Part shown: positions 635 through 40,851 of the stretch, piece by piece
Position numbering within the stretch: position 1 is the stretch's first letter
Layout of the letters: every line of letters begins with the position of its first letter
Source of the DNA: Elusimicrobiota bacterium
GTDB lineage: Bacteria; Elusimicrobiota; Elusimicrobia; UBA1565
NCBI GenBank assembly: GCA_043827405.1
Contig: JBDRPD010000034.1
Coordinates: forward strand, 32,001-96,000
Reading direction: 5' to 3'
Length of the DNA: 64,000 nucleotides
Made by a program: the position numbers and the translations under genes
The notes under the pieces: model-generated
What the model was told of the DNA's origin: nothing
What the model saw: the letters and a program-made list of their open reading frames with translations, nothing else
Databases searched by the model: none

Positions 635-663
635 TTGACAAACATTCACAATCCTGTTAAAAC
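635..663 (+). promoter_or_regulatory. Sigma70-type promoter of the pilM operon
   Basis: TTGACA at 635-640, 17-bp spacer, TG-n-TAAAAC at 655-663, with an A-tract upstream. The -10 lacks the final T. Confidence 0.6.
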
Positions 664-833: not shown

Positions 834-1997
834 ATGGCTGGCTTGGCCGGGCTGAAGGAAAAGCTTAAAAAGGTCGACTTAAAAGGACTGAAGGAGAAGG
901 CAATGTCCTTGGTGGTCGGCCCGCAGGATATTATCGGCATTGATATCGGCAGCCATGCCGTGAAGGTCGCGGCCATCAAAAAAGTTAAGGATAAGCTGAC
1001 TCTCCATAGCTGGGGTTATCTGCCGCTTGATCCCAAGCCGGAAGCCACGGCGGATGAGAGGAAGCAGCAGACGATCAACCTGCTGAAGGCCTTCCTCATA
1101 CAGAAGAACGTGCAGATTAAAAATGTCGCCACGTCTATTTCCGGCAATGCGGTGATCGTGCGCTATGTTAAATTTCCTTTGCTGACCAAGAACGAGTTTA
1201 AGGCGACGCTCGCCACGGAAGCCGAGCCTTTTATCCCGTTCGATATCAACGAGGTTCAGCTGGGTTTCCATATCCTCGGCGAGCTGGTCGAGGAAGGGCA
1301 GAAAAAGATGGAGACTGTGCTGGTCGCGGCCAAGAAAGAAGCCGTGCAGATGCGGGTGGAGGTGCTGCAATCTCTGGGTCTTAAGCCGACGATCATCGAC
1401 GTGGACTCTTTCGCTCTGGAAAACGTATATGAGCGGATGGCGGAAGCGGGTACGGGCGGCGGCGCGACGCTTCTTCTTAACGTCGGGCACTCCGTTACCA
1501 ACCTCTCTATTATTGAGGAAGGCGTGACGCGCGTGGTCCGCGACATCCTGATTTCAGGGAATACCTTTACGCGCGCGATCATGAAGTCGCTGCAGTGTGA
1601 GTTCCCCAAGGCGGAGGAGGCTAAGAAAGCCTTCGGCATTCTCGTCGATCCGGAAGAGAAGGAGAAGGCGCTGCAGGCGGGCCAGCGGGAGGCGCTGGGG
1701 GTTTCCCAGGCCGTCACCACCGTACTCAAGGACATGGTCGGCGAGCTGCACCGGTCGGTCGATTTTTACCTTTCGCAGGGACCGGAGCGCTCGATCGGGC
1801 GCATCGTGCTCTCCGGTGGGTCGGCCGGGATGAAAAATATGGCCCGGCATCTGGCGGCCGAACTGAAGGTTCCGGTTTCGGTACTGGATCCGTTCGCCTG
1901 CCTTTCGGAGCTGCCCGCGGATATTCCCAAAGAGATCGCGCCCGGATTGGGCGTTGCCGTAGGCTTGGCCCTGCGCAGCAATAGGGACTGGGAATGA
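834..1997 (+). CDS. pilM: Type IV pilus assembly protein PilM (actin-like)
   Basis: IGIDIGSHAVK, VIVRYVKFP, IPFDINEV, LLNVGHSVTN, IVLSGGSA, VAVGLALR. Start at ATG 834 after GGAGG (819-823). Confidence 0.93.
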   Translation: MAGLAGLKEKLKKVDLKGLKEKAMSLVVGPQDIIGIDIGSHAVKVAAIKKVKDKLTLHSWGYLPLDPKPEATADERKQQTINLLKAFLIQKNVQIKNVATSISGNAVIVRYVKFPLLTKNEFKATLATEAEPFIPFDINEVQLGFHILGELVEEGQKKMETVLVAAKKEAVQMRVEVLQSLGLKPTIIDVDSFALENVYERMAEAGTGGGATLLLNVGHSVTNLSIIEEGVTRVVRDILISGNTFTRAIMKSLQCEFPKAEEAKKAFGILVDPEEKEKALQAGQREALGVSQAVTTVLKDMVGELHRSVDFYLSQGPERSIGRIVLSGGSAGMKNMARHLAAELKVPVSVLDPFACLSELPADIPKEIAPGLGVAVGLALRSNRDWE

Positions 1998-2557
1998 TTA
2001 AGGTAAACCTGGTACCGGCGGAGATTCTGGACCGGGAGGTCCAGCGCCAGCGGGCGATCCAGGTGGGGATCGTCGCCGGCCTGGTCGCGCTGTTATTTGC
2101 GGGCGTTTCATTCACCCATTATCGCACCAAGATCCAGGTGACCAAGCAGCTCGAGGAGGAGAACGCGCGCTTAAAAAAGCTGGAGGCGATCGTCGCGCAG
2201 GTCAATGCCTTCGAGTCGAAGGCCGCCGCGGTGCGCTCGCGCTTGGGCGTGATGAACGATCTTTTGAAGTCGCGGGAGCTGTATCCTAAATTTATGGTCG
2301 ATATTATCGAATCTTTTCCGGACGGCGTATGGATCGGCACCTTGTCCACCACAAAAAAAGACAAGACCCTGTCGCTGTCAATGCCCGCTTTTGCCGCATC
2401 GACCGGCGATCTGACCACCTGGCTGCGCACGCTGGAGGAGTCAAAAATTTTTTCCGAAGCCAAGATCAGCGGGATAGCGATCGACCAGGAAGGCAAACAT
2501 ACTTTTAGTATGTCGATGATTTATACGCCGCAGGATGGGGAAAAGAAGCAGCCGTAG
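1994..2557 (+). CDS. pilN: Type IV pilus assembly protein PilN
   Basis: N-terminal IKVNLVP (INLLP-like PilM-binding motif), one TM helix, coiled coil, PDGVWI; ATGA overlap with pilM. Confidence 0.9.
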   Translation: MIKVNLVPAEILDREVQRQRAIQVGIVAGLVALLFAGVSFTHYRTKIQVTKQLEEENARLKKLEAIVAQVNAFESKAAAVRSRLGVMNDLLKSRELYPKFMVDIIESFPDGVWIGTLSTTKKDKTLSLSMPAFAASTGDLTTWLRTLEESKIFSEAKISGIAIDQEGKHTFSMSMIYTPQDGEKKQP

Positions 2558-2566
2558 CGAGCGAGC

Positions 2567-3115
2567 ATGGCGAATATCCAAATCAAGCTGACCAAAGAGC
2601 AGCAGCAGTATCTGGTGTTTGCGGTGATGTTTTTGGGCGGCGGCGGGTATGCGTATGTGAAATATTTTTGGCTGCCGACTTCGGCGGCGATCACCAAGAC
2701 GAACGCCGAGATCGAAAGCGTCGTCAAGAAGATCACGAAGGCGAAGGGCGCCGCGGGAAAACTAAAGAAGATCCAGCAGGAACTCGAGCTGCTTAATAAG
2801 CAGGCGGAAGAAGCGGAAAAGCGTCTGCCGAAGGAAGAGGACTTCCCCACTGTCGTCGATACGATTACCGGCTTGGCCCGCAAGTACAATGTGGAGCTGA
2901 AGTCGTTCTCGACCGGCAAAAGGCAGGACCAGGCTCATTTCGTGCAGCTCACCTATTCGATTTCCGCTTCGGCGCCGTATCATGATTTGGGAAAGTTTTT
3001 TGCCTCGCTCGCTCTCGAAGAACGCATCTACAATGTGGAGAATGTCAGCTACTCTCCGGCGGAAGACACGGTGAGCGTTAATTTCCTGCTGATATCGTAT
3101 ATGTACAAAGGGTGA
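2567..3115 (+). CDS. pilO: Type IV pilus assembly protein PilO
   Basis: TM helix, coiled coil, RLPKEEDFP, YHDLGKFF..L..ERIYNV; follows pilN. Confidence 0.88.
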   Translation: MANIQIKLTKEQQQYLVFAVMFLGGGGYAYVKYFWLPTSAAITKTNAEIESVVKKITKAKGAAGKLKKIQQELELLNKQAEEAEKRLPKEEDFPTVVDTITGLARKYNVELKSFSTGKRQDQAHFVQLTYSISASAPYHDLGKFFASLALEERIYNVENVSYSPAEDTVSVNFLLISYMYKG

Positions 3116-3116
3116 T

Positions 3117-3584
3117 ATGAGGATTTATTGCGCGGCCGTTTTATTTCTATTTACGTTCTCTCGCGGCGTGGGGGCGGAGGAGTTTTCTGTTGCCGCTTCA
3201 TCTGCGGCCGTCAAGCCGCGGACAGTCAACGATATATACACCGGGGCGCATTATCGCAACCCCTTCACGGCGGTGGCGATCAAGAGCGGGGGGATTTCCT
3301 TCGCCGCGGCGGCGGCCTGGGATCCCGCGGATTTTAACATCCATGAGCTGGACCTAAAAGGGCTCCTGCGCGACAAAAATGGGGCCTTCGCCATACTTAC
3401 GGACCGGTTGGCCGGCGTGGGCTTCATGCTGCGCAAGGGGAAGCTTTATGATTACCGGAACAATCTCATCCCCGATGTGACCGGCAAGATAAATGTGGCG
3501 CAGAAAACGGTTTATCTGATAACCTCGGAAAAAGATGTCCAGACGTTGCATCTCGGCGAGGACAAAGATGATTCGGAGCAATAA
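3117..3584 (+). CDS. pilP: PilP-like pilus assembly protein
   Basis: Lies between pilO and pilQ; YRNPF (RDPF-like) and LDLKGLL...AFAILTD beta-domain; signal peptide without an evident lipobox. Confidence 0.65.
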   Translation: MRIYCAAVLFLFTFSRGVGAEEFSVAASSAAVKPRTVNDIYTGAHYRNPFTAVAIKSGGISFAAAAAWDPADFNIHELDLKGLLRDKNGAFAILTDRLAGVGFMLRKGKLYDYRNNLIPDVTGKINVAQKTVYLITSEKDVQTLHLGEDKDDSEQ

Positions 3585-3599
3585 CGAGGAGATATCGTC

Positions 3600-5741
3600 A
3601 TGATCAGGGAACTCTTCAAAAAATGCATCGCCGTGCTCATCGCGCTGCTGCTGTCGGCGCAAGGTCAGGGCGCGTTGGTGTGGGCCGCGGAAGCGGCGAC
3701 GCTCGACGGCATCGAGGTCCAGCCGGATCAGGTGACGATGCACCTCAGCAAAGAGGTCCGCTATAATAGTTTTATAACGGTTGAGCCGCCGCGCCTGATC
3801 GTTGAACTCCTCAATACCGAGTTCGCCGCCGCGCAGAAGACTCAGCAGGGGCAGGGGACGCTCCTTAATCGCGTGCGCGCGGCGCAGTATCAGCGCGAGC
3901 CTAATCTAATAACCCGGATCGTGCTGGACCTTAAGAAGCTCGCCGCGTACCGGGCGAAGTGGGATGGCGGCAAGCTGATCGTCATTCTCATGGGCGGCGA
4001 CAGCGACAGCGATGAGGGCGCGGATGCGGTCGCGGACGAGGAGGCGCCGGCGGTAGAGCAGGCGCTCAAGCCCGCTATCGAGCCGGCCAAGAAAACCGTC
4101 GTCGAGCGGGAGTTGCGGCCCGTGGTCAAGCGGGTGCAGAAGCCCGTTCCCGTGCCGGAGCCCGCGCCGGTCATGCGCGATGCGGCCGCTGAGGACGTCG
4201 CGCCGGTGCCTGCGCCGGCGCTGAAACCGGAGGTCGCGGCAGTCGCGCCGGAGCCGGAGGCCGCGCCGAAGCCGGCCGCTATGCCGAAGCGGATGACGAC
4301 GCAGGCATCAGAGGAGCTGACCCGGATGGCTATGAGTTCAGACGTCCGTCCGGGAGCCCCGGTCGAGGCGGCCGGCCAGCGCCGTGCGAGTAAGGGCCGG
4401 AAGCCGGCGGATGCCGAAGCGCGCCGGGATATTCTGGCGACACTGTCCACGGACCCCATCACGCTGGATTTTGACAATACCAATATCCAGGACATTCTAA
4501 AACTCCTGGCGGTGAAGGCGAAGGTTAATGTCGTATACGGACCGGACGTTACCGGTGCCCTGACCCTGCATTTGTCGGACGTGCCGTTTAATGAGGCCTT
4601 CATGACGGTCCTCTCCATGCAGGGGCTGGTCGTCGCCCAAGTCGGCCAGAATATCCTGCGGATAATGACGCCGATTACGATGTCCAAGGAGCGGGCGTCG
4701 GCCGTGACGCAGACGCGCGTTATCCACTTAAACTACGTCAAGGCGGCTGACGTCAAGAAGGCGTTGGATAGCGTTCGCACGGCGGAAGCAAGGGCGGGTG
4801 TCGTGAATTTCGACGAGTACACAAATTCCTTAATCATTACGGACAGCCTTGACGGCATCGCCGCGGCCGAGCGGCTGCTGGCGGAGCTGGATGTCCGGCC
4901 CCGGCAGGTCATGATCGAGTGCAAGCTGGTGGAAGTTATCCTAAGCAAGGATTTCAACGTCGGCATTGAGTGGGACTATTTTAGCGTGGACCAAAGCAAG
5001 CAGTTCGGCCAGCAGGGCTGGGACGTCATCGGCACTGTGGCGAACCCGTTGGTTGTCGGCGGCGCCGTCGCCCGCCCGTTTGATAATAATGCGCAGCTCA
5101 ATGCGGTTGGAACGGCGATACCCGGCGCGGGCGGCCGCGGAACGGGCGTATTCCTGCCGGCGACGAACGTATTCGGCGCTTTCACCTATGGCCGCATAAC
5201 GAACAACTACTTTCTGAATGCGACCCTGACCGCTGCCGCCTCGCGCGGCAAGGCCAAGGTGCTTTCCGACCCCAAGATTTCGGCGCTTAATGGAGAGAAG
5301 GCGTCGATCGATATTACGACGAATATCCCTTACGTGACCTCCGAAACGGTGCAGGGCGCGACGCCGACCACGACGGAAAAGGTCTCCTATACCGTCACGG
5401 GTATTAAGTTGGAAGTCACTCCGAACATCAATAGCGATGGCAGCATCACTCTTGAGATTAAGCCGGAGGTCAGTCAGCCGTCTACGGTGGCGTCCGCCGC
5501 CGGTGGGACCGGAGCGATCTCTACCGACTCGCGCAGCGCGCAGACGACCGTGCACGTCAACGACGGCGACACCATCGTCATCGGCGGTCTCATCTCCGAC
5601 ACGGAAAGCGAGAACATCGCCAAAATCCCGCTGCTGGGTGATATTCCGATCCTGGGATGGCTGTTTAAGAAGAAAACAAACGTCCGCAACCGGACCGAGC
5701 TGCTGATCTTCGTCACCAGTAAAATCGTTAACCCCTCCTAG
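3600..5741 (+). CDS. pilQ: Type IV pilus secretin PilQ (AMIN domain, Pro/Ala linker, N domains, secretin)
   Basis: Signal peptide; PPRLIVEL/TRIVLDL AMIN motifs; ITLDFDNTNI; DEYTNSLII; QVMIECKLVEV; KIPLLGDIPILGWLFK; ELLIFVT. Confidence 0.95.
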   Translation: MIRELFKKCIAVLIALLLSAQGQGALVWAAEAATLDGIEVQPDQVTMHLSKEVRYNSFITVEPPRLIVELLNTEFAAAQKTQQGQGTLLNRVRAAQYQREPNLITRIVLDLKKLAAYRAKWDGGKLIVILMGGDSDSDEGADAVADEEAPAVEQALKPAIEPAKKTVVERELRPVVKRVQKPVPVPEPAPVMRDAAAEDVAPVPAPALKPEVAAVAPEPEAAPKPAAMPKRMTTQASEELTRMAMSSDVRPGAPVEAAGQRRASKGRKPADAEARRDILATLSTDPITLDFDNTNIQDILKLLAVKAKVNVVYGPDVTGALTLHLSDVPFNEAFMTVLSMQGLVVAQVGQNILRIMTPITMSKERASAVTQTRVIHLNYVKAADVKKALDSVRTAEARAGVVNFDEYTNSLIITDSLDGIAAAERLLAELDVRPRQVMIECKLVEVILSKDFNVGIEWDYFSVDQSKQFGQQGWDVIGTVANPLVVGGAVARPFDNNAQLNAVGTAIPGAGGRGTGVFLPATNVFGAFTYGRITNNYFLNATLTAAASRGKAKVLSDPKISALNGEKASIDITTNIPYVTSETVQGATPTTTEKVSYTVTGIKLEVTPNINSDGSITLEIKPEVSQPSTVASAAGGTGAISTDSRSAQTTVHVNDGDTIVIGGLISDTESENIAKIPLLGDIPILGWLFKKKTNVRNRTELLIFVTSKIVNPS

Positions 5742-5743
5742 GC

Positions 5744-7228
5744 GTGATCCTGCCCGCGCTGCTGGCCCTCGCGGTTGCGCTGGGCCCGCTGTTGCGCGGC
5801 TGTTGGGATATCTGGGCGCAGGCGCTCATCCATCAGGCCGCGGTATGCGGCATTATCCTCTGGCTGCTGTCGCGCGTGATTGTGGGCTATGTGCCGCTGC
5901 CGTCGCGCCGGAACCTGTTATGGGCGGTGCTGCTGACGGCGCTGGGCACGGCATCCGTCGTGCGCAGTCCGGTCCATGCTCTGGTCCTGCCCGAGTGGTA
6001 CAACTTTCTCAACGCCCTGTGGATATTCCCCATTATGGCCGCGGTATCCAAGGACGAGCGCCAGCATGTCGATATCGCGCTGCGGGCGGCGGCGTGGATA
6101 CTGATGGCGCTCGCTTTTTATCAGCACTTCCGGCTGGGAGAAGCCCGGCCGGCCAGCGCGCTGGTCAACGAGAACGTCTTTGCCGGGACGATTCTGCTGC
6201 TGCTGCCGTTGGCGCTGGAGAAAAAGGATTGGCTGCTGGCGGGAGGGCTGTTCGTGAACCTCCTGTGGACGCGGAGCGTAGGCGCCTGGCTGGGACTGGC
6301 CGTCGCTTTGCTGGTGACGCAGCGGGGGCGGCGCGCCGTCTGGTTCTGGGCCGGTCTGGCCCTGGGACTCCTCTGCGCCGTGGCGGTTTACAATAAGCTG
6401 CAGTCCCCGGACGTGCTCAACCGGCTGTACTGGTGGCAAGCGGCGGTCGCGATGATCTGCGAGCGTCCGCTCACCGGCTTCGGGCCGGGGGCGTACGCGC
6501 CGGTGCTGCCGGCGGTCGCGGCGAAAGAGGGCGTGTTCTCCGGGTATGCTCACCAGTATTTCCTGCAGACGGCGGCGGAGTACGGTATAGTATTCACCGG
6601 CATCTGGCTTGCGGGGCTGTGGAGCTGCGTCGTGCGCGGAAGTTCCTACAAGAGGTTCGGCGCGCTGGCTTTGCTCGTTTATTCCTGCTGTGATTGGTCG
6701 CTGTCGATGCCGGCCAACTTATGGCTGTTCTCATATTTTGCGGCGTCCTCGATTTCGGAGGGCTCACAGGGCGTCAATGTCCCAACGCGTTTTAAGCTTC
6801 CCTGCTGCGCGCTGCTGCTGCTTATTGGAGGGTTTCTAACCGTGCGCATTCTGCATCTATGGGCCGCCGACCGTGCGAAGACCCGGGCGGTCGCGGCGCT
6901 GCATTCCGGCGACCTCGCGGCGGCGCGCGCCGCCGGGGAGGCGGCGGCGCGGCATGTCGCCCGTGATCCCGACACGCAGGAGCTGCTCGCCGCTGCCGAC
7001 CTGGGGCGGACCGCCGGCCGGGGCGCGGGCGATTCTGCGCTGCGTTCGGCGGCCGGACATCTTGAGAAGGCGGCGCAATGGAATCCGTACCGAGCTCGCA
7101 CTTGGGCCGCTCTGGCTGACGTGCGGGGCCGGCTCGGGGACGGCCCGGGCGCCGCGGCGGCACGACGGGACGGCGCCCGGTGGAGTCTGCGCTACCGGCG
7201 CGGACTGGAGAAAGAAAGTGCTCGGTGA
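5744..7228 (+). CDS. O-antigen ligase / O-oligosaccharyltransferase-like (Wzy_C) membrane protein with C-terminal TPR-like region
   Basis: Many TM helices; NENVFAG, TRSVGAWLG, R.YWWQAA..MI.ERPLTGFGPG, YAHQYFLQTAAEYG (WaaL-type His motif); helical TPR-like tail (WNPYRARTW). Confidence 0.8.
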   Translation: MILPALLALAVALGPLLRGCWDIWAQALIHQAAVCGIILWLLSRVIVGYVPLPSRRNLLWAVLLTALGTASVVRSPVHALVLPEWYNFLNALWIFPIMAAVSKDERQHVDIALRAAAWILMALAFYQHFRLGEARPASALVNENVFAGTILLLLPLALEKKDWLLAGGLFVNLLWTRSVGAWLGLAVALLVTQRGRRAVWFWAGLALGLLCAVAVYNKLQSPDVLNRLYWWQAAVAMICERPLTGFGPGAYAPVLPAVAAKEGVFSGYAHQYFLQTAAEYGIVFTGIWLAGLWSCVVRGSSYKRFGALALLVYSCCDWSLSMPANLWLFSYFAASSISEGSQGVNVPTRFKLPCCALLLLIGGFLTVRILHLWAADRAKTRAVAALHSGDLAAARAAGEAAARHVARDPDTQELLAAADLGRTAGRGAGDSALRSAAGHLEKAAQWNPYRARTWAALADVRGRLGDGPGAAAARRDGARWSLRYRRGLEKESAR

Positions 7229-9221
7229 GGGCCGCGGCCGTATAACGCGCCGCGATATCGCCGGTCTTGCGGCGCTCACGGCGCTGCCCGCGCTGCTCTT
7301 CGGCCTGCGCTGGGTGTTCGGCCAGACATTTTTTTGGGGCGACCTCCTGTATCTGCATTATCCCTGGAAGGCCGCGGCGGCGGAGCGTGTGCTGCAGGGA
7401 GCCGTGCCGTTATGGAACCCCTATATCTATCTGGGCATGCCGCTGGCCGCCGAGATGCAGTGCGCGGTTTGGTATCCGGGCTCACTGCCGTTTTATTTTT
7501 TTAATTTTCCGACGGCTCTGGCGGTGTTTCATACCGTTCATTTCGGGCTGGTCGGCATGTTCTCCTATCTGTGGCTGCGGCGGCTGGGTTTTTCTCGTGC
7601 GGCGGCCTGGGGCGGGGCGGCGGTATTCATGCTGTGCGGCAGCGTGGTCAGCCGCATCCCCTTTCTGAACCATATTTCGACGATCATGTTTTTCCCCGCC
7701 CTGCTGCTGCTGGCGCGGTTCCCCGTGCTGTTGGGGCTGGTTTTCGCGCTCGCCTTCTTCGGCGGCTACCCCACTATGCTCATCGGCGAGATCGCCGCGG
7801 CCTGGCTGCTGCATGTGCTGATCGAGGGGCGGGGACGACGCGCGCTGCGGGCGGCGCGCGTCTGGGCGGCGGCGGCCGTTCTGGGCCTGGGCCTTGCGGC
7901 CTGCCTGTTCCTGCCGGCGGCCCAGTTGGCGGCCGGTTCCAAGCGCGGGCAGGGCATGGAGGCGCCGGAGGTGTTGACCTGGTCGTTTCGTCCGGGAGAT
8001 TTGGTGCAGCTGACCGCTCCGCCGCTGATACCCGCCGGCGAGTTCTCGCCGACGGGCTTATGGTGGAAGACGGTATATTTCGGCTTCGGCGGGTGCGCCG
8101 CCGCCGCCGCCGGACTGCTGGCCGCCGGTCCTGCGGCGGCCGCGGCGGCGGCCGGCTATATCGGCGCGGTGCTGCTGATCCTGCTGGGGGATGGAAATCC
8201 GGTCTCGCATTTCATTTGGACTTATTTTCTGCCGCTTAAATACGTGCGCTATCCCGGCAATATGGCGTACCTGCTGCTGCCGGCCGCGGCGCTGCTGATC
8301 GCCCGCGGACTGCATCGACGCCGCTGGGCATGGGGTGCGGCGGCGGTCATTGCCGTCGAACTGGGCGTGTATGCCGCGGTCTCGCAGCCCACGGTCAGCA
8401 AGGGTTATTTCGCCGACAGCGGCCCGCTGGTGCGCGTGCTGCGCCGGGAATTGGACGGGCATCGCTACCTGCTGTCGCCGCTGGCGCTGCATTGGCAGCG
8501 CGGGGCCGGCGGAGACTCGCCCGCCGCCTTTCGCGATCTAAAGCACCGCCTCTACGGTCTGACCAATATGCCTTATCATCTGGAGAGCGTCGGCAGTTTC
8601 GGCGAGCCGCTGGTGCCGCAGCCGTCCTATGATTTTATGGATTTCATCTTCAGTCGTCCCAGCTTGGCGGAGGCGGCGCGGTGGCTCCATTGGGCGGATG
8701 TCCGCATCCTTATGACGCGCGATCAAATGGCCGGCGGCGCGCTGCGCTACCTCGGCGACAGCTTATGGCATATCTACGCGAACACCGAGCCGGTTTCTCG
8801 AGCGTACTGGTTCGCTGAGGACGCCGGCGGAAATATCCCCGCCGTCCTCGGCCGGCTCCCGGGGGCCGATGTCGGGCGGGGCATACCGCTGTCGGTGGAG
8901 CGGTCGCGCGATGAGCGGTTTTCGATCGCCGCCTCTTTCCCGCGGCCGGGCTGGGTGTATGTCTCTGAACCGCTGGGCCCGGGTTGGAAAGTGGAGGTCA
9001 ACGGCCGCGCGGCGAGGACGGTTCCGGCGCTGCGCGCTTTTCACCGGCTGCGCGTGCCGGCGGGTAAGTGGCGGGCGGCGTTTCGCTATGAGCCGGTATT
9101 CTGGCGCCTGGGTTTGTGGCTGACTTTGCTCGTTCTGTGCGGCCTGACGGCATATTGGTACAACCGGCTTCTCATATATTCCGCAGGACAGGGCGTCCTC
9201 CAGCGCCGCTTGCGAGCATGA
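7218..9221 (+). CDS. YfhO-family (GT-C) membrane glycosyltransferase
   Basis: GDLLYLHYP, G.VPLWNPYIYLGMPLAAEMQCAVWYP, and C-terminal PGWKVEVNG...VPAGKW...FRYEP. Start trimmed to GTG 7218. Confidence 0.82.
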   Translation: MLGEGRGRITRRDIAGLAALTALPALLFGLRWVFGQTFFWGDLLYLHYPWKAAAAERVLQGAVPLWNPYIYLGMPLAAEMQCAVWYPGSLPFYFFNFPTALAVFHTVHFGLVGMFSYLWLRRLGFSRAAAWGGAAVFMLCGSVVSRIPFLNHISTIMFFPALLLLARFPVLLGLVFALAFFGGYPTMLIGEIAAAWLLHVLIEGRGRRALRAARVWAAAAVLGLGLAACLFLPAAQLAAGSKRGQGMEAPEVLTWSFRPGDLVQLTAPPLIPAGEFSPTGLWWKTVYFGFGGCAAAAAGLLAAGPAAAAAAAGYIGAVLLILLGDGNPVSHFIWTYFLPLKYVRYPGNMAYLLLPAAALLIARGLHRRRWAWGAAAVIAVELGVYAAVSQPTVSKGYFADSGPLVRVLRRELDGHRYLLSPLALHWQRGAGGDSPAAFRDLKHRLYGLTNMPYHLESVGSFGEPLVPQPSYDFMDFIFSRPSLAEAARWLHWADVRILMTRDQMAGGALRYLGDSLWHIYANTEPVSRAYWFAEDAGGNIPAVLGRLPGADVGRGIPLSVERSRDERFSIAASFPRPGWVYVSEPLGPGWKVEVNGRAARTVPALRAFHRLRVPAGKWRAAFRYEPVFWRLGLWLTLLVLCGLTAYWYNRLLIYSAGQGVLQRRLRA

Positions 9222-14239: not shown

Positions 14240-14245
14240 ATTATT

Positions 14246-17190: not shown

Positions 17191-17191
17191 T
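17186..17191 (+). promoter_or_regulatory. Possible internal -10 box
   Basis: TATAAT overlapping the upstream stop codon, in the largest gap of the operon, followed by AGGTG and GTG 17209. Confidence 0.35.
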
Positions 17192-17208
17192 CCCCTGCAG
17201 GTGAAATC

Positions 17209-17904
17209 GTGAGCGAACTCGATCTTTCGATCGTTATCCCCACTCTCAATGAAGCCGCTAATATCGGCCCCGTCCTGCGCGGAATTTGCCAGCAGGCCGA
17301 ACGCCTTGGTTTGCGCTATGAGGCGTTTATCGTCGACGGCCCGTCGACGGATGGCACGGGAAAGGAGGCCGCGGCGGCGGGCGCCCGGGTTGTCGAGGAG
17401 CATGCGGGAGGGTTCGGCCGGGCGGTGCGCCGCGGCTTGACCGAAGCGCGGGGCGAGTTCGTGCTGCTGATGGACGCGGACGGCTCGCATTCCGCCGCGG
17501 TATTCCCCGAGATATGGGCCAAGCGCCTGCAGGCGGACCTCGTGATCGGTTCCCGCCTGGTGGCGGGAGGGGGGATGGAAATTCCGCCGCATCGCCGGCT
17601 GCTGACGCATATTCTCAACGGATTTTTCCGGCTCCTCTTCGGTCTGCCCGCACGCGACTGCTCGAGCGGTTATCGGCTTTACCGGGCGTCGGCCGTCGGG
17701 AATGTGGAAGGCATCGCCCAGGGCTTCGATATCCAGCAGGAGAACCTTATTAAGATGGTGCGCGCCGGCGGTCGTGTCGCGGAGGTGCCGATCTACTATG
17801 CTTGGCGCACGGAAGGGGTGTCGAAGGCGAAGATATTGAAATTCGGTCTCGGGTACCTGCGCTTGGTCGCCCGCTATTGGCGCGGCGGTCGCGGCGGTGC
17901 ATAA
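17209..17904 (+). CDS. GT2, polyprenol-phosphate glycosyltransferase (DPM-synthase-like)
   Basis: IVIPTLNE, VDGPSTDGT, MDADGSH, VIGSR, DCSSGYRLY, G.SK. Confidence 0.9.
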   Translation: MSELDLSIVIPTLNEAANIGPVLRGICQQAERLGLRYEAFIVDGPSTDGTGKEAAAAGARVVEEHAGGFGRAVRRGLTEARGEFVLLMDADGSHSAAVFPEIWAKRLQADLVIGSRLVAGGGMEIPPHRRLLTHILNGFFRLLFGLPARDCSSGYRLYRASAVGNVEGIAQGFDIQQENLIKMVRAGGRVAEVPIYYAWRTEGVSKAKILKFGLGYLRLVARYWRGGRGGA

Positions 17905-19661
17905 TGTTTGATGTGCGCGGCAAAGAGTCCTATGCGCTGATTATTGTTTTGGGGCTGCTGCTGGGGCTCAGCGGAATCCGCTGGGGCATTCCGGAAGACG
18001 GCCGCCTGCGGCGCATTCTGCCGCCCGGCCTGCACGGACCGCAATTCCATGCGGAACTGATCTCGGCCTGGGAGGACATCCACCGGCGCTTGGGGCCGAA
18101 CCTAATGCTTAATCCGGAATCCTTCGCCACCTTTTCGCAGGTGCAGGACGCCCCGGCCGGCTGGCAAAAGCCGCCGCGGTTTCTGTATAACGCCGTGCGC
18201 TCGTTCCATGTGCGCTCCGTTCACGACGACGAGCAGTCCGTCTTTCTGGCGCTTTCCAAGATGCGCCCGCGCCGCCTGGACTTCAACCCCCACTTCTTTA
18301 CCTACGGCGGAGTTTACATTTACGGAGTCGGCGCCTGGCTGGGCGTCGGAGCGCTGCTGGGCGCGGTGGACCTGCACTCTTCGCTGCTGCCGTACCTCAA
18401 CGAGCCCGTAAAGATGGGCGGGATGTACTTCTGGGGACGGCTGCTGTCGGTTGGGGCCTATATCGGCTGCGGCCTGATGCTCTTCGCGCTCGGGCGGACC
18501 TTTTTGCGCCGCCGGGCGGCGCTGCTGGCGGCGGTGCTGTTTATGCTTTCGCCGGCGGTCGTCGTCCAGGCGCATACGATGAAGCAGCATTCGCTGTGGA
18601 CCTTCCTTTCCTTCGCGACGCTGTATCTCTGCCTGCGGGTTCGCGAGCGCGGCGGGTGGCGGGAGTATCTGGCCGCCGGCGCGGTGGCGGGGCTGACCGT
18701 GGGGGCGGCGCTTAACGCCTGGCCGACCTGCCTCTATATCGCCGCCGCCGCCCTGCTGCGGACGCGCGAGAAGCCGGCGCGGTGGCGGACGGAGCTGCTG
18801 CGTCTCGCCGCCGCCGCCGCCGCGAGCGTCGCGGTGTTCTTCGCGACCAACCCCTACTGGCTGCTGGATTATGCCCACGCGTATCAGGAGTTCGTGGTGC
18901 TGACAGGCTATACTACGGCGAACCTTCTGAGTCCGGTGCGGATATTCACCGGCAGCTTCCGCCACGCCGTGACGACGCCGGTTTTCCTCCTGATCTGCGC
19001 GGGGATCGCCTGGGCGCTGACCTCCGGGCGGCGCAATCAGGGCGCGCTGCTGTGTCTGTGCGCGTTTTTCGTCATGCTGGCGGCCTCGGTTACCTCGCAG
19101 CTCACGGTCGGGATGCGGCAGATCCGCTACTTCCTGCCCATTGTGGGGACGGGCGCGCTGCTGGCGGCCGGCTGTGCCGATGACCTGCTGCTGCGGTTTC
19201 CCCGCTGGCGCCGGACCGCGGTCGCGGGGCTGGCGCTCGTCGTCGCCAATGTGGGAATGGCCGGCGCGCTCTACGCCTTAAACTTTCAGCGTACGTCGGC
19301 GCCGGGCTCGAACCATTACCGGGCCGGCGACTGGATCGCCGCGCAGGTGCCGGCAGGCGCCGTCATCGGCATGCTGCGCGATCCCGCGCCGTCCAACAGC
19401 GCCTACTTCCCGCTGTATCGCTACGGAATCCGGCTTATTCCGCCGGAGCTCTTCGGGACGCTCGAGCCCGAGCGCCTGCCGGACTATCTTGTACTGTCGG
19501 TGCCGGACTACGGACAGCGGGAGTCGCTCGAACCGAATTTGTCGCGCGAGTTTGAGCCGGCCGCCGAGTTCCTGCGTCCCCGGCTGGCGTGGAGCGAAAT
19601 CCAGCTGAGCGCCACCACGGCCAACCCCCCGATCATGGTGTACCGGAGGAAAGCTAAATGA
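17904..19661 (+). CDS. GT-C (GT39/ArnT-like) membrane glycosyltransferase
   Basis: GIRWGIP...HDDE, NPHFFTYG, GRLLSV, LSP....AH..K, NPY; many TM helices. Confidence 0.75.
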   Translation: MFDVRGKESYALIIVLGLLLGLSGIRWGIPEDGRLRRILPPGLHGPQFHAELISAWEDIHRRLGPNLMLNPESFATFSQVQDAPAGWQKPPRFLYNAVRSFHVRSVHDDEQSVFLALSKMRPRRLDFNPHFFTYGGVYIYGVGAWLGVGALLGAVDLHSSLLPYLNEPVKMGGMYFWGRLLSVGAYIGCGLMLFALGRTFLRRRAALLAAVLFMLSPAVVVQAHTMKQHSLWTFLSFATLYLCLRVRERGGWREYLAAGAVAGLTVGAALNAWPTCLYIAAAALLRTREKPARWRTELLRLAAAAAASVAVFFATNPYWLLDYAHAYQEFVVLTGYTTANLLSPVRIFTGSFRHAVTTPVFLLICAGIAWALTSGRRNQGALLCLCAFFVMLAASVTSQLTVGMRQIRYFLPIVGTGALLAAGCADDLLLRFPRWRRTAVAGLALVVANVGMAGALYALNFQRTSAPGSNHYRAGDWIAAQVPAGAVIGMLRDPAPSNSAYFPLYRYGIRLIPPELFGTLEPERLPDYLVLSVPDYGQRESLEPNLSREFEPAAEFLRPRLAWSEIQLSATTANPPIMVYRRKAK

Positions 19662-20875
19662 TTTTTTCGATCGTCATCCCGGCCTACAACGAGGAGGGCT
19701 CGGTGCAGGAGATCCTCCGCCGCAGCCTCGCGGCGGGCGGACATCTGGTGGCGGCGGGCGCCGGCGTGACGGAGGTCGAAGTGATCCTGGTGAGTGACGG
19801 GTCGAGCGACCGCACCGAAGAGCTGGCGCGCGGCATTGCGGGGGTGAAGGTGATCGCCTATCCCCATAATCGCGGCTACGGCGCGGCGATCAAGACGGGT
19901 TTTGCGGCCGCGCGCGGCGAGTGGCTGAGCTTTCTGGACGCGGACGGCACCTGCGATCCCGAGTTTTTTCACGAGCTCCTCGCGGCGGCGCGCGAGGAAG
20001 GGCTCGATGTGGTGCTGGGTTCGCGGATGCATCCCGGCAGCAAGATGCCTCCCGTGAGGGTGCTGGGCAACTGGATATTCCGCACCATCGTCAATCTCAT
20101 CGGCGAGTCGGACGTTACGGATACCGCCAGCGGCATGCGCATCCTGCGCCGCAGCGCGCTCGACCGCCTGGCGCCGCTGCCGGACGGGCTGCATTTTACG
20201 CCGGCGATGAGCGTGCGGGCGATCCTCGATCCCGAGCTCAAGATCGGCGAACGGCCGATGCCGTACGAGGAGCGGGTCGGGCGCTCGAAGCTGAGCGTGC
20301 TGCGGGACGGAGTGCGCTTCCTGCGCGTTATCCTGGAGACGGCGCTGACCTACCGCCCGCTCAAGTTCTTCGGCTGGGCGGCGGCGGCGCTGGCCCTGCC
20401 GGCGGTCCTGCTGCTGCTGCTGCGCCTCGGCGGCCCCACCGAGGCGCCGGTTCCGTTCTATATCAGCCGCGGGCGTATCGAGGACTGGATGTTTTTCCGC
20501 CTGATTCTGACGTCGGTCCTCTTCGCTTCATCGGTCTTTCTTCTGTCGTTGGGCCTGGTCGCGCAGTCGCTGGTCGGCATCATCAACCATGAGAAAGCCG
20601 CGCCGGACGGCTGGCCGCGGGCGGTGACGGATCGCTTCGCTTTATGGGGGGCGCTTAGCTTGGCCGCCGCGCTCGTCATCAACAAGCGCCCGCTGCTGTC
20701 GTACTGGCGAACGGGAGAAATCCCGGCCGAGTTCTGGGTCTTCCCCGTCGCCGGGGCGCTGTTCGTTCTGATCGGACTGCAGCTGCTGGCGTTCTATGTC
20801 GTCGCCGGTCTCTCGCGGCTGCTGTGGGAGCGTGAGCGTTATCGACGGCCCTCCGCGGGGGAGGACTCGCAGTGA
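19658..20875 (+). CDS. GT2 DPM/ArnC-like glycosyltransferase with C-terminal TM helices
   Basis: VIPAYNEE, DGSSDRT, NRGYGAA, FLDADGT, DTASGMR, Y.ER.GRSKL, RPLKFF. Confidence 0.9.
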   Translation: MIFSIVIPAYNEEGSVQEILRRSLAAGGHLVAAGAGVTEVEVILVSDGSSDRTEELARGIAGVKVIAYPHNRGYGAAIKTGFAAARGEWLSFLDADGTCDPEFFHELLAAAREEGLDVVLGSRMHPGSKMPPVRVLGNWIFRTIVNLIGESDVTDTASGMRILRRSALDRLAPLPDGLHFTPAMSVRAILDPELKIGERPMPYEERVGRSKLSVLRDGVRFLRVILETALTYRPLKFFGWAAAALALPAVLLLLLRLGGPTEAPVPFYISRGRIEDWMFFRLILTSVLFASSVFLLSLGLVAQSLVGIINHEKAAPDGWPRAVTDRFALWGALSLAAALVINKRPLLSYWRTGEIPAEFWVFPVAGALFVLIGLQLLAFYVVAGLSRLLWERERYRRPSAGEDSQ

Positions 20876-22146
20876 CCGAAAGGCGCGCCCTGATTATTAT
20901 CCTGGCCGCCGCCTTCTTCGTCCGTGTTTTGTACTGCTGGGGCTTCGGTCCTTATGAGCCCGGCGGGGACATCCCGAGCTACGACCATTATCAAAATCTG
21001 GCGCACAGCTTGTATACGACCGGATCCCTGAGGCTGGACGGCGACTTGAGCGCCTTCCGCGAGCCGGCCTATCCGATGTTCCTCGCCGCGCTGTATCGTG
21101 TCGCGGGCGAGAGCTTCCCGGTGCTGTGGATCGCGCAGTCCTTGGTCGACGTTTTGACCGTCTGGCTGGTATTCCTGCTGGGACGGCGCATCTTCAGCCG
21201 CAATGTCGCCTGGGCCGCTGCGGTCTTCGCGGCGTTTTATCCGCAGATGATCTACTATGCGGCCGAGCCGCGGCGGGAGAGCTTTCTGGTCTGCGCGCTC
21301 GCCCTGGCGATGTGGGCCACCATCACCGCCGGAGAAAAACCGAAGGACGCCCGCTTCCTGGTGGCGGGCCTGCTGTGGGCGGTTCCGCCGCTGACCAAGT
21401 CGGTCTACCTGCCGGTCGGGGTGCTCGCGGCGGTTGTCGTCTGGCTGCTGGGGCGGCGGCGCGAACAGGACCTGCGGCGGGGAGCGGCGGTATTCCTCGC
21501 GGCTTTTCTCGGCGTCTATGCGCTGTGGCCGCTGCGCAACTACCTGGTATTCGGCCAGTTTATCCCCGGGATTACGGGCGGCGGGGGGCATCTCTACGTC
21601 GGCCTCATCGTTCCCGACAAGGATGCCGGGACGTCCGCCGAGGAAAAGTATATCCTCAACGCCGAGGGCATGAAGTCGGCGGCCCGGTTGGGCCGCGAGG
21701 GCAAGCTCAACGTCGCGGAGCATAATGAAAATCTTGACCGGCACTTCTACCGCGAGTCGGCGCACTGGATCATGAAAAATCCCGGGCGGTTCACTCTGCG
21801 CTTGATTCTGAGCGCGCTCAAGCTGTGGCGCTTGTACCCGTATGAGCGGGATTACGGAAGGAACTACCGCCTGCTTAAATGGGTCAGTCTGCTTTCCGAC
21901 GGCTGGCTGATTCCGTTGGCGCTGGCCGGCATGCTGTTGGCCGGCCGCAAGTTTCCGCCAGCCGATCTCTTTCTGGTCACGCTGTTGGCGGCGACATTTG
22001 TCTATATGATATTCTGGGCCGTTATTCGTTACCGGCTGCCTCTTATGCCTTATATATTCCTCTACGCTGCGTACGCGCTGGAGCGCGCGGTTCTCCGGGT
22101 TCGGCCCGGAGCCCTGCCGTTTCCCGCATCCAAGGAGGCTGCATGA
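20872..22146 (+). CDS. GT-C (ArnT/GT83-like) membrane glycosyltransferase
   Basis: Y..LA.SL, AFREPAYPMFLA, FYP..IYY...ES, W..RNY.VFG.F, RYRLP. Confidence 0.8.
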   Translation: MTERRALIIILAAAFFVRVLYCWGFGPYEPGGDIPSYDHYQNLAHSLYTTGSLRLDGDLSAFREPAYPMFLAALYRVAGESFPVLWIAQSLVDVLTVWLVFLLGRRIFSRNVAWAAAVFAAFYPQMIYYAAEPRRESFLVCALALAMWATITAGEKPKDARFLVAGLLWAVPPLTKSVYLPVGVLAAVVVWLLGRRREQDLRRGAAVFLAAFLGVYALWPLRNYLVFGQFIPGITGGGGHLYVGLIVPDKDAGTSAEEKYILNAEGMKSAARLGREGKLNVAEHNENLDRHFYRESAHWIMKNPGRFTLRLILSALKLWRLYPYERDYGRNYRLLKWVSLLSDGWLIPLALAGMLLAGRKFPPADLFLVTLLAATFVYMIFWAVIRYRLPLMPYIFLYAAYALERAVLRVRPGALPFPASKEAA

Positions 22147-23144
22147 GTTTTTGGGACGGCAAGAAGGTCCTGGTCACCGGGGGCGGCGGTTTTATCGGCA
22201 GCCATACCGCCGAAATGCTGCTGACGGCGGGACAAGACGTCAAGGTCACGGTGGCCGATGATTTTTCGCGGGGGCTGCGTGAGAATCTCGCCGACATCAA
22301 GGACCGCATCCGTATCGAGCGGGCGCAGCTGCAGGATATGGCGGACTGCCGGCGCGTATGCCGGGGGCAGGACGTCGTGATCAACCTGGCGGCCAAAGTC
22401 GGCGGAGTGGGCTACAACGCGGTGCACCCGGCGACCATGTTCCGGGAGAATGTGCGGCTGAGCACCTATATGATGCAGGCCGCGCAGGAAGCCGCCGTGG
22501 AGCGGTTCGCGGTGATCAGTTCGGCCTGCGTATACCGTCGTCACTGTACGATCCCGACACCCGAGACGGAGGGCTTTGCGGGGTGGCCGGAGTTTACCAA
22601 CGAAGGCTACGGCTGGGCCAAGCGCATGGCGGAGTTCGAGGCGGAGGCGATCCATAAGGAGTTCGGCATGAAGGCGGCGATCCTGCGGCCCTACAACTGC
22701 TACGGCCCGCGGGATCATTTCGACCCCAAAACTTCGCATGTTATCGCGGCGCTCATCCAGCGGGTGCTGGGCGGAGAGAACCCCGTGCGCGTCTGGGGCG
22801 ACGGCTCGCAAACGCGGGCGTTTCTTTACGTTGAGGATTTCGCCCGCGGCGTGCTGGAGGTGACCGAGCGTTACGCGGAATGCGATCCGATAAACCTCGG
22901 CGCCGACGAGGAGGTCCCGATCCGCGACCTGATCGATATGATCATCGAGCTGACCGGCTCGCGGGCCGCGGTGGAATTTGACACCACCAAGCCGGCGGGC
23001 CAGCCCCGCCGCAACTGCGATACTAAAAAGGCGCGCGAGAAGACGGGCTTTACCGCGCAGGTGAGCCTCAAAGAGGGGCTGCGGCGGACCATCGAATGGT
23101 ACAAGAAAACCCATGAAACGAAGCTTGATTCTGCTGACGTATAA
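22143..23144 (+). CDS. Extended SDR NDP-sugar epimerase/reductase (GDP-L-fucose synthase-like)
   Basis: TGGGGFIG, LAAKVGG, SSACVY, YGWAK (YxxxK), SHVIAALI, WGDGSQTR.FLYVED, KPAGQPRR. Confidence 0.85.
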   Translation: MSFWDGKKVLVTGGGGFIGSHTAEMLLTAGQDVKVTVADDFSRGLRENLADIKDRIRIERAQLQDMADCRRVCRGQDVVINLAAKVGGVGYNAVHPATMFRENVRLSTYMMQAAQEAAVERFAVISSACVYRRHCTIPTPETEGFAGWPEFTNEGYGWAKRMAEFEAEAIHKEFGMKAAILRPYNCYGPRDHFDPKTSHVIAALIQRVLGGENPVRVWGDGSQTRAFLYVEDFARGVLEVTERYAECDPINLGADEEVPIRDLIDMIIELTGSRAAVEFDTTKPAGQPRRNCDTKKAREKTGFTAQVSLKEGLRRTIEWYKKTHETKLDSADV

Positions 23145-23802
23145 CGAGATAGAAGCCGCGCCGAAGGTCCTGGAGAACGTTCCGCTCGACTGCGCCGACG
23201 AGGTCATCGCGGTCGACGGCGGATCACAGGACGGAACCATCGACTTTTTGCGGTCCAAGGGGCTGCGCGTGGCGGTGCAGGAGAAGCGCGGCCGCGGCAT
23301 CGCCTTCCAGGTCGGGATGGAGGAGTCGCAGGGCGACCACGTCGTCTACTTCAGCCTCGACGGCAACGAGGACCCCGACGATATCCCGAAGCTCTTCGCG
23401 GTGCTGGAGGAGGGCGCCGATATCGCGATCGCTTCGCGCATGATGCGCGGCGCCTTTAACGAGGAGGATGTCCAGTGGATCCGCCTGCGCAAGTGGGTCA
23501 ACCACCTATTCTCCAATATCGCCAATATCCTATGGAATCGCGGCTGCTATGTCACCGACACGATTAACGGTTTTCGCGGCATCACTCGCAAGGCATTCGC
23601 CGCCGCCTGCCCGGACGCCGACGGTTTCGTTATTGAGTATCAGATGTCGATTCGGGCGATGAAAAAAGGGATGAAGATCGTCGAGATCCCCACCCATGAA
23701 GGCCAGCGCCTCGGCGGCGAAAGCACGGCCAAGTCATTTCCCACCGGGGTGATCTTTATTAAGCAGCTGCTTAAGGAAATCCGGTTAGGCCGCGCGTTCT
23801 GA
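23113..23802 (+). CDS. GT2 DPM-synthase-like glycosyltransferase
   Basis: LTYNE, VDGGSQDGT, FSLDGNEDP, IASR, TDTINGFR, R.GGES. Confidence 0.88.
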   Translation: MKRSLILLTYNEIEAAPKVLENVPLDCADEVIAVDGGSQDGTIDFLRSKGLRVAVQEKRGRGIAFQVGMEESQGDHVVYFSLDGNEDPDDIPKLFAVLEEGADIAIASRMMRGAFNEEDVQWIRLRKWVNHLFSNIANILWNRGCYVTDTINGFRGITRKAFAAACPDADGFVIEYQMSIRAMKKGMKIVEIPTHEGQRLGGESTAKSFPTGVIFIKQLLKEIRLGRAF

Positions 23803-40095: not shown

Positions 40096-40851
40096 ATGAA
40101 GGGAGAAAATAAAGTTATCGTGGTGCTTCCCGCCTACAACGCGGAGAAGACGCTGGAGAAAACGATTCGCGACATCCCGCCGGGCTCCGTCGACGAGATG
40201 ATTTTGGTCGACGACTGCTCCATGGACGGCACGGTGGAGCTGTCGCGCCGGCTGGGGCTGACAACGATCGTCCATGAAAAGAATATCGGATACGGCGGCA
40301 ACCAAAAGACCTGCTACCGGGAAGCGCTCAAGCGCGGCGCCGACATCGTTATCATGATCCACCCGGACTATCAATACGACTCGCGGGTGACGCCGTTTTT
40401 GTCCGGGCTGATCATCAACGACGTCGCGGATTTCGTGCTCGGCAATCGTATCCGTACCCGGCGGGAGGCGCTGGCTGGCGGCATGCCCGTATGGAAGTAT
40501 GTGGCCAACAGGCTGCTGACGGCCTTCGAGAACCTGTTTGCCGGACAAAATCTCGGGGAGTGGCATTCCGGTCTGCGCGCGTATTCGCGCGAGATCCTTG
40601 AGACCATTCCTTGGGAGAAGAACTCGGACGACTTCGTGTTCGATCAGCAGTTTCTGCACCAGGCCGCATATCTCGGCTTCCGTATGGGCGATATCCCGGT
40701 TGCCGCCCGGTATTTTGCCGAAGCGTCATCGATCAACTTCCGCCGCAGCGTGGTCTACGGGCTGAGCTCGCTGGGGGTCATGTTCTGGGTGCTGGTCGCG
40801 CGCTGCGGATTATGGACGCATCCCATACTGCGGTCCGTTAAAACGCGATGA
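40096..40851 (+). CDS. GT2 DPM-synthase-like glycosyltransferase
   Basis: [58 protein letters not shown]. Confidence 0.92.

Follow-up and report, generated by a model that had tools for sequence, protein, structure and literature searches.

A pilMNOPQ operon continuous with a putative periplasmic glycosylation module in Elusimicrobiota

Pilin glycosylation is known from a few proteobacteria, in which one transferase is encoded beside the pilin gene. Other described systems provide further points of reference. Genes for the O-oligosaccharyltransferase (OTase) PglL adjoin pilin genes in 21 of 31 cases (PMC3643930). In Streptococcus mutans, a GT-A glycosyltransferase (GT), an epimerase and two YfhO-domain GT-C enzymes glycosylate proteins (PMC12041528). 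In three-component systems, YfhO and PMT_2 proteins glycosylate wall polymers (PMC8035078), and this transmembrane glycosylation design is described also in PMC11127046. TfpW is a GT-C that uses a lipid-monophosphate-type sugar pathway (bioRxiv 2020.04.19.049825). The stretch analyzed here (G000:C34:32001-96000, 64,000 nucleotides, termed "the window") was taken from the 4.33-Mb, 98% complete genome of an Elusimicrobiota bacterium from groundwater. In it, the pilus-assembly genes pilMNOPQ lead directly into 14 glycan genes, the first of which encodes a Wzy_C membrane protein with C-terminal tetratricopeptide repeats (TPR), termed WzyC1. The linkage of pilQ to the glycan genes is real, conserved and old; the sugars are likely placed on the pilus or surface proteins rather than on lipopolysaccharide (LPS), and co-transcription is putative. 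No published account of this pilMNOPQ-glycosylation arrangement was found among titles and the starts of abstracts, in a search that covered few subscription papers and no supplements.

Linkage of pilQ to the glycan genes

For an unbiased count of linkage, genomes were taken by pilQ position from a 161-genome sample of the phylum, which held 58 likely orthologues; 44 of these were analyzed. The secretins of G087 and G114 (430-470 aa, with a response-regulator gene next) were left out of the adjacency count as likely paralogues. A Wzy_C gene directly followed pilQ in 34/44 genomes, came after one short TPR gene in 4/44 and lay within 8 kb in 3/44; none was seen near pilQ in 3/44, one of which was at a contig end. 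YfhO1, the first of two YfhO-like GT-C genes that follow WzyC1, was present within 20 kb of pilQ in 18 of the 44, and many genomes carried a tandem pair of Wzy_C genes at the pilQ locus. When 31 genomes were searched with WzyC1 instead, 20 loci were obtained, 19 of them with pilQ immediately upstream (the window's own locus included). The closest named PilQ relatives were from Elusimicrobiota, as were all taxon-named Wzy_C and YfhO homologues save one, from an unnamed bacterium. Synteny in relatives had been suggested as a check by an earlier note on this DNA, and the pilQ-Wzy_C linkage proved to be conserved across the phylum.

In the window, 19 open reading frames form a single run at 834-23802 on the + strand, and an independent, codon-trained gene caller returned the identical 19 genes (Table 1). 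With the nearest plausible starts, the intergenic gaps were -4, 9, 1, 15, 2, -11, -4, -4, -4, -4, 6, -4, 18, -1, -4, -4, -4 and -32 bp, in agreement with the earlier description of 19 same-strand genes that overlap or are at most 18 bp apart. The pilus genes are in canonical order, with PilM and PilQ over their family cut-offs, PilN and PilO recognized by Pfam domains and PilP by position only; pilB-pilT-pilC are located on contig C108, and many pilins are encoded elsewhere in the genome. The pilQ stop codon ends at 5741 and WzyC1 starts with GTG at 5744, leaving 2 bp. No purine-rich ribosome site precedes this GTG, which, with the short gap, fits translational coupling to pilQ. No + strand terminator-like site was found at this junction in a sequence scan of 1-13000 (16 sites over the scan, compared to 13.0 +/- 3.7 in shuffles). 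Thus, both the 2-bp spacing of a ligase- or OTase-like gene behind pilQ and the lack of a visible terminator, as first noticed, were confirmed from the sequence. Three RNA runs of the same study yielded nothing but pieces of 18-51 bases that stem from other organisms, with no bearing on co-transcription. The predicted promoter-like site ahead of pilM was read by eye and is absent from the list of the sequence scan. No Rfam match occurred within the window.

Such tight packing is usual: of the 2404 same-strand neighbor pairs in the genome, no fewer than 1285 were separated by 20 bp or less, and this figure is a minimum because the gene caller was crude. GT-C genes are common as well (12 Wzy_C and 31 PMT_2 matches). 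A single junction in a single genome therefore proves little; it is the phylum-wide conservation that lifts the linkage above chance.

Conservation of the individual glycan genes was assessed at order level. The 16 loci used spanned 18 kb or more and were truncated at 20 kb; WzyC1 had served to choose most of them, and a gene was counted at 30% identity or more. WzyC1 was present in 14 loci, YfhO1 in 15, YfhO2 in 13, the flippase-like gene in 14, the Trm112 methyltransferase gene in 14, the GT4 gene in 16 and the AsnB gene in 15. The seven genes that follow were present, in order, in 2 (methyltransferase), 6 (GT2), 3 (PMT_2), 3 (GT2), 2 (PMT_2), 3 (epimerase) and 2 (GT2) loci; the tails of relatives carry DegT, RmlC/D, WecB, Wzx, MurJ, radical-SAM and heptose-kinase genes instead. 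The 14 glycan genes comprise a conserved seven-gene core and an exchangeable seven-gene tail. The earlier picture of a single 14-gene cassette was thus given up: its last seven genes vary among genomes, and neither an initiating phosphoglycosyltransferase nor a Wzx flippase was found within the 19-gene run in a Pfam scan. A horizontal origin of the tail was considered and rejected, as its GC content (0.61-0.68) resembles that of the core.

The ancestral arrangement, seen on one strand in G073, G144, G034, G093 and G135, is bamA-lpxD-lpxC-fabZ-lpxA-lpxB-msbA, (relA), recG, coaD, (pilB, pilT), pilC, pilin, pilD and then pilM onward; this block is an envelope super-operon. Within the host's taxonomic order, the lpx genes have undergone inversion and pilin-pilD has a different location, with pilQ-wzyC1-yfhO still together. 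The adjacency of pilD and pilM is broken there and in G082, G084 and G085, and WzyC1 stays with pilQ. Families f5 and f21 have kept pilQ-wzyC without YfhO genes. In family f12, pilC and pilM-Q are gone and pilin-pilD-wzyC1-flippase-GT2 is left, a set that some genomes carry apart from the lpx genes; the f12 Wzy_C gene nests within the WzyC1 clade (FastTree support 0.99, 106 rows). That WzyC1 stays with a pilus gene through these rearrangements is more telling than adjacency alone, and it was counted for protein glycosylation. In family f4, neither pilQ nor WzyC1 was strongly matched in 49/50 genomes, with LpxC kept in 50/50; this was likewise counted for protein glycosylation. YfhO1 was found in 0/50 f4 genomes and 1/47 f12 genomes.

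WzyC1, its relatives in the genome and candidate acceptors

The structure model of WzyC1 had a predicted local distance difference test score (pLDDT) of 95.2. In a fold search of the model, residues 1-342 best matched WaaL 7TPG (Z 22.4, root-mean-square deviation 4.4, 324 residues aligned), and residues 367-494 matched TPR proteins. The OTase structure 9RMK was absent from the fold-search returns, and the likeness of WzyC1 to it rests on sequence profiles: the membrane profile matched 7TPG (8.1e-12) and 9RMK (1.4e-7), and the whole-length profile matched 9RMK over positions 35-485. The TPR domain is predicted to be periplasmic from the helix count and inside-positive loops.

Residues were counted in an alignment of 43 pilQ-linked WzyC1 copies. 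R227 is kept in 43/43 and H270 in 41/43, in both cases including the window copy; they align with R265/H313 of WaaL and R298/H349 of PglL, whose catalytic roles are described in PMC10920833 and PMC3643930, respectively. The PglL-specific residues according to Schulz et al. (PMC3643930) are Q178, N180, H400, E404 and P406, with R224 common to WaaL. At the N180 position (N144 in WzyC1), Asn is present in 40/43, and the Q178 position is Asn in 38/43. The Arg that corresponds to R224 in WaaL, R191, binds undecaprenyl-diphosphate (Und-PP) phosphates (PMC10920833). An Arg or Lys is located two places before this position in 25/43 copies and might substitute for it. Loss of the R191 equivalent could hint at a monophosphate donor, a lead only, given that one subclade keeps the Arg.

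The host genome provides a comparison. On contig C92, another Wzy_C gene follows waaA, GT9/heptosyltransferase genes and lpxK. This lpxK-linked, WaaL-like family was found in 25/30 relatives, and beside lpxK in 6/19 of the relatives' loci. Its 16 complete copies have 387-411 aa, lack a TPR and end 82-96 residues past the His position; R191 is Arg in 16/16, the PglL Asn is absent, and a profile of the family finds only WaaL 7TPG (E 1.4e-16). The sequence comparison supports WzyC1 as the more protein-OTase-like of the two. This contrast is the strongest new evidence, and it holds for the host's order only, not for the phylum. Two copies of the lpxK-linked gene, 92% alike, were noted at contig ends (the end of C92 and the start of C2), and G025 has a tandem pair.

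A second secretin locus (G000:C66:106761-123252; L117, L118) opens with genes for two Wzy_C-TPR proteins of 880-900 aa immediately before pilB, pilC and a pilin gene, and goes on to encode a TPR protein, three assembly-like proteins, the secretin and another pilin. G047 also keeps a Wzy_C-TPR pair beside its secretin operon, ahead of pilB-pilC-pilin. These pairs were counted as a pointer to glycosylation of pilus proteins.

Full-length Wzy_C-TPR proteins encoded beside pilin-pilD in f12 (L094-L103, L192-L195) have the Arg changed to Lys and lack the catalytic His; they are kept even in genomes of ~1.1-1.3 Mb, in which no secretin match was present at E 1e-20. They are candidate pseudoenzymes.

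In a joint alignment of YfhO1 and YfhO2, Asp42, a candidate for the acidic catalytic residue, is near-invariant (21/22 rows, the remaining row gapped), and 8/22 members match the YfhO family. No match to the alignment profile was found among solved structures, and a single-sequence structure model of YfhO2 was too poor to use (pLDDT 39.9). The flippase-like LPG_synthase_TM protein is single-copy in the host genome (tblastn).

As for acceptors, the variable loop of the pilins has 26% Ser/Thr vs. 19% in the rest and is higher in 19/25; a PglL-type site would be Ser/Thr-rich, and the signal is weak. The PilQ linker has 6% Ser/Thr in the host. No enriched Ser/Thr word or glycosylation sequon was found in 497 secreted proteins predicted with a crude signal-peptide rule. 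By eye, no pilin differences were seen between genomes with intact and degenerate WzyC1. N-glycosylation was rejected: an Asn-Cys-Ser/Thr word occurs in most major pilins, but a search gave no match to STT3, and the Cys, His and Asp residues there appear to be structural.

The major-type pilins (window 29769-30206, - strand; contigs C24, C66, C81, C105, C108 and C9; alignment A4) have a single Cys in a C-terminal Cys-x-His-x-Asp motif and an invariant upstream His. His84, Cys120 and Asp124 are invariant and His122 nearly so (25 rows); the cluster is likely a metal site replacing the usual disulfide. One search gave 17 matches in the host genome, which holds many pilins and many PilT-like ATPase matches despite having no clear prepilin peptidase.

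Proposed mechanism, alternatives and neighboring genes

We propose that a type IVa pilus operon ends in a conserved periplasmic glycosylation module, with WzyC1 as a PglL-like protein OTase accompanied by decoration with undecaprenyl-phosphate sugars; an even chance is given to this proposal, which draws on sequence and on modeled structure. A WecA-like enzyme encoded elsewhere in the window (42830-43894) would prime a glycan on undecaprenyl phosphate; the GT4 enzyme would extend, AsnB amidate and the methyltransferase methylate the Und-PP glycan. WzyC1 would then move the lipid-carried glycan to Ser/Thr of pilins or other pilus or periplasmic proteins, with its TPR domain picking the acceptor. 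The GT2 enzymes would make undecaprenyl-monophosphate sugars, and the LPG_synthase_TM protein may flip lipid-linked sugars. Outside the cytoplasm, single sugars would be added by four GT-Cs, two of them YfhO-like and two PMT_2, either to the glycan or directly onto protein, as PgfM1 and PgfM2 do. As an exchangeable set, the seven tail genes likely vary the sugar decoration between strains.

The WecA-like gene is 19 kb beyond the end of the run. In other families, close homologues of it (45-55%) and of the nearby FAD oxidoreductase (39-49%) were each encoded in 8/60 loci, downstream of pilQ at a distance of up to 20 kb. Because its close homologues sit there, the WecA-like enzyme was taken as the likely displaced initiator, and the genes at 40096-45249 are likely displaced parts of the glycan system of the run.

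A bolder form of the proposal is offered tentatively and appears doubtful: a phylum-wide, ancestral pilus glycosylation machine of undescribed design, in which the Wzy_C-TPR protein of each secretin operon would load a glycan and a YfhO/PMT bank would edit it with exchangeable single sugars, some lineages keeping a dead Wzy_C-TPR protein as a pilin-handling scaffold.

A number of observations weigh against glycosylation of pilus proteins. WzyC1 matched Wzy_C only in the Pfam scan, and neither PglL_A (PF15864) nor Wzy_C_2 (PF11846). H400 is kept in 16/43 copies (Tyr in the window copy) and P406 in 5/43; the Arg common to WaaL and PglL (R191/R224) is present in 5/43 and is Val179 in the window copy. 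The E404 position is acidic in 41/43, but it is acidic in the lpxK-linked family too and so does not discriminate. The pilin-linked WzyC1 of f12 is without the catalytic His in 14/27 genomes examined and intact in 13/27; three of the 14 hold a His-bearing Wzy_C copy elsewhere. In five f1 genomes (G007, G013, G008, G016 and G002), WzyC1 has been lost or has degenerated, with an intact pilQ alongside. The co-loss of pilQ and WzyC1 in f4 is one event among kin, and G060, G138, G166 and genus g21 retain pilin and pilD but have no WzyC1, by which a clean co-loss of pilin and WzyC1 was ruled out. No clear prepilin peptidase was found in the 98% complete assembly, which has one weak A24 match on C74. 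The acceptor rule of TfpO is a pilin that ends in Ser. None of 29 major-type pilins does (last residue Tyr in 22, Trp in 3, Phe in 2 and Leu in 2), and a TfpO-type acceptor was ruled out on this rule. Finally, the pilus and glycan genes trail the lipid A genes in the ancestral block, where the unrelated relA, recG and coaD are kept too; such carriage of housekeeping genes means that gene-order inertia is strong, which weakens the argument from adjacency alone.

That placement lends itself to the alternative that survives best, which is possible but on balance unlikely: decoration of LPS or of an envelope glycolipid or polysaccharide, with WzyC1 as a second ligase and the YfhO/PMT_2 and GT2 enzymes forming three-component side-chain systems of the usual type; the pilus genes would be neighbors in an old outer-membrane super-operon. 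The best structural match of WzyC1 is WaaL, YfhO and PMT_2 proteins act on wall polymers in three-component systems (PMC8035078), the GT4 and AsnB top scores are to exopolysaccharide-associated models, and in G021 and G027 the two YfhO genes are separated by a GT9 heptosyltransferase-like gene. LpxC is present in 160/161 genomes of the phylum sample, and the lpxK-linked family was found in 21/161 at E 1e-30 and not in the other 140; outside the host's order, WzyC1 or its neighbor could be the LPS ligase. However, the LPS core cluster of the host and of most of its order holds its own WaaL-like gene, WzyC1 has a TPR and the PglL-type Asn that this WaaL-like family lacks, and in four rearranged lineages WzyC1 was carried along with pilus genes instead of lpx or waaA/lpxK. 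Of the earlier suggestion that a ligase- or OTase-like gene serves glycosylation of the pilus or of secretion substrates, the OTase-like lean stood up against the lpxK-linked gene; decoration of LPS or lipid is still a possible alternative to such substrates, as the whole block trails the lipid A genes in the ancestral order.

There is a small chance that WzyC1 is instead a non-catalytic pilus accessory, a membrane scaffold that binds pilin or assembly proteins via its TPR, with the downstream GT-Cs as a separate surface-glycan cluster. The catalytically degenerate, full-length copies beside pilin-pilD in 14/27 f12 genomes, several of them small and reduced, are in keeping with this, as are the retention of pilQ-wzyC without YfhO in f5 and f21 and the frequent loss of the R191 equivalent. 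The near-complete conservation of R227 and H270 in pilQ-linked copies argues the other way, and the loss or truncation of WzyC1 beside an intact pilMNOPQ in the five f1 genomes shows that the operon can be retained in its absence.

Cyanobacteria offer a precedent for pilus-linked polysaccharide in their hormogonium polysaccharide. A secreted or cell-bound polysaccharide working with, or leaving through, the pilus machine is nevertheless highly improbable here: the top-scoring models for GT4 and AsnB are of the PEP-CTERM/exopolysaccharide kind, with scores below cut-off, and relatives' tails hold Wzx- and MurJ-like flippases, but no Wzz/Wzc co-polymerase, Wza or ABC exporter was found in the run by Pfam scan, and the conserved His is of the ligase/OTase type, the polymerases of the clan having Asp/Glu at this position (PMC10920833).

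Table 1. Features of the window, with positions, strands and the basis of each assignment
Feature	Position	Strand	Basis
Promoter-like site ahead of pilM (predicted)	635..663	+	exact -35 hexamer 635-640, 17-bp spacer, extended -10 655-663; by eye
pilM	834..1997	+	TIGR01175 223.5 bits, over cut-off; PF11104
pilN	1994..2557	+	PF05137
pilO	2567..3115	+	PF04350
pilP-like	3117..3584	+	no Pfam or NCBIfam match; named by position and homologues at the same place in relatives
pilQ secretin (AMIN, Ala/Pro-rich linker, STN, secretin)	3600..5741	+	TIGR02515 291.4 bits vs. cut-off 284.35; PF11741, PF00263
WzyC1, Wzy_C (GT-C B, WaaL/PglL fold) with C-terminal TPR, candidate OTase; core	5744..7228	+	PF04932, structure model
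YfhO-like GT-C 1 (YfhO1); core	7218..9221	+	PF09586 over cut-off; weak NCBIfam match to streptococcal PgfM2, E 6.8e-5
YfhO-like GT-C 2 (YfhO2), YfhO1 paralogue; core	9218..11089	+	no Pfam or NCBIfam match of its own; named by position and homology
LPG_synthase_TM flippase-like membrane protein; core	11086..12069	+	PF03706, TIGR00374 over cut-off
Trm112-domain S-adenosylmethionine (SAM) methyltransferase; core within order	12066..13091	+	PF03966 and PF08241
GT4 glycosyltransferase; core	13088..14239	+	PF00534, PF13439; top NCBIfam TIGR03088 below cut-off
AsnB-type amidotransferase; core	14246..16174	+	TIGR01536 over cut-off; top score TIGR03108 below cut-off
SAM methyltransferase; variable tail	16171..17190	+	PF13489
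GT2, polyprenol-phosphate-sugar synthase-like; variable tail	17209..17904	+	PF00535; NCBIfam AglJ, dolichyl-phosphate hexose transferase, below cut-off
PMT_2-type GT-C; variable tail	17904..19661	+	PF13231
GT2 with C-terminal membrane helices (GtrB/ArnC/PgfS-like); variable tail	19658..20875	+	PF00535; NCBIfam AglJ, PgfS, ArnC below cut-off; 4 hydrophobic segments
PMT_2-type GT-C; variable tail	20872..22146	+	PF13231 E 3.6e-15
NAD-dependent sugar epimerase/reductase; variable tail	22143..23144	+	PF01370; top NCBIfam GDP-L-fucose synthase below cut-off
GT2, polyprenol-phosphate-sugar synthase-like; variable tail; last gene of run	23113..23802	+	PF00535; top NCBIfam polyprenol-phosphate-sugar synthase models below cut-off
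GT2, PMT-type GT-C, WecA-like phosphoglycosyltransferase (42830-43894), FAD oxidoreductase; outside run	40096..45249	+	PF00953; TIGR02380 108 bits, below cut-off

The run ends at a convergent DUF4956 gene located 14 bp past the last GT2 gene. At 23817-28219, DUF4956 and VTC-domain genes (- strand) stand back to back with a gene for a 980-aa CotH kinase/beta-helix protein (+ strand). A second glycan run occupies 33569-45249 (+ strand), with HddC/GmhB/HddA/GmhA-like heptose genes, two GT2s, three PMT-type GT-Cs, the WecA-like enzyme and the FAD oxidoreductase. Immediately upstream of and divergent from pilM, the genes at L001:11585-19642 (- strand) encode a HAD hydrolase, an NTP transferase, an ATP-grasp-like protein, a class III aminotransferase, a Gfo/Idh oxidoreductase, a CDP-alcohol phosphatidyltransferase and an inositol-1-phosphate synthase. 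They precede bamA-lpxD-lpxC, likewise in G013 and L024 and partly in L033, and are possibly an amino-inositol lipid pathway.

Comparison with known systems

If the sugars are placed on pilus proteins, a whole phylum has kept an OTase and several GT-C editors tied to pilMNOPQ since its root, and the variable tail would make pilus coats differ from strain to strain. Such coats usually serve to evade phages and predators. The known OTases would gain a family that bears a TPR and has an altered donor site, of use to glyco-engineering, and WzyC1 with its pilins vs. the lpxK-linked WaaL-like gene of the same genome would be the gene sets to test. If LPS is decorated, the locus is an ordinary envelope super-operon.

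Like PglL and PglS of Neisseria and Acinetobacter (9RMK; numbering of N. meningitidis PglL), WzyC1 has a Wzy_C membrane part with an extra C-terminal domain and is encoded beside pilus genes; it keeps equivalents of R298, H349, G316, G318, N180 and the acidic E404. Unlike them, it has no PglL_A/Wzy_C_2 match, has mostly lost R224 and partly H400, and rarely keeps P406; its C-terminal domain is a TPR, and its gene follows pilQ, not a pilin gene, and is accompanied by GT-C and GT2 genes. WaaL (Cupriavidus metallidurans 7TPG/7TPJ; CAZy GT121) is the best fold match, with R265 and H313 equivalents kept, but WzyC1 has the R191 equivalent in 5/43 copies, an added TPR and a location outside the LPS core cluster, where the host's closer WaaL-like gene sits.

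With the three-component systems (CsbB/GtcA/YfhO; GtrABC; ArnT), the locus shares a GT2, a flippase-like protein and a YfhO/PMT_2 GT-C, but its candidate flippase is of the LPG_synthase_TM type rather than GtrA/Wzx, and four GT-Cs and three GT2s are found in one run. Like TfpO/TfpW of Pseudomonas aeruginosa, the transferase gene is inside a pilus locus; unlike them, the gene is not beside a pilin gene, D-arabinofuranose genes are absent from the run, and the host pilins do not end in Ser. With the S. mutans Pgf system (PgfS, PgfE, PgfM1 and PgfM2), it shares a GT-A polyprenol-phosphate-sugar synthase, an epimerase and two tandem YfhO-domain GT-Cs; this gene set is present in full, with the second YfhO assigned by homology. 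Differences from Pgf are the diderm host, the linkage to pilMNOPQ and Wzy_C, PgfM2 and PgfS scores far below cut-off, and a Ser/Thr-rich acceptor class known in Pgf only. Because the PglL domains, the WaaL Arg and locus, and the TfpO acceptor all differ, the locus is filed under none of the known systems, and it would appear to work most like PglL plus Pgf.

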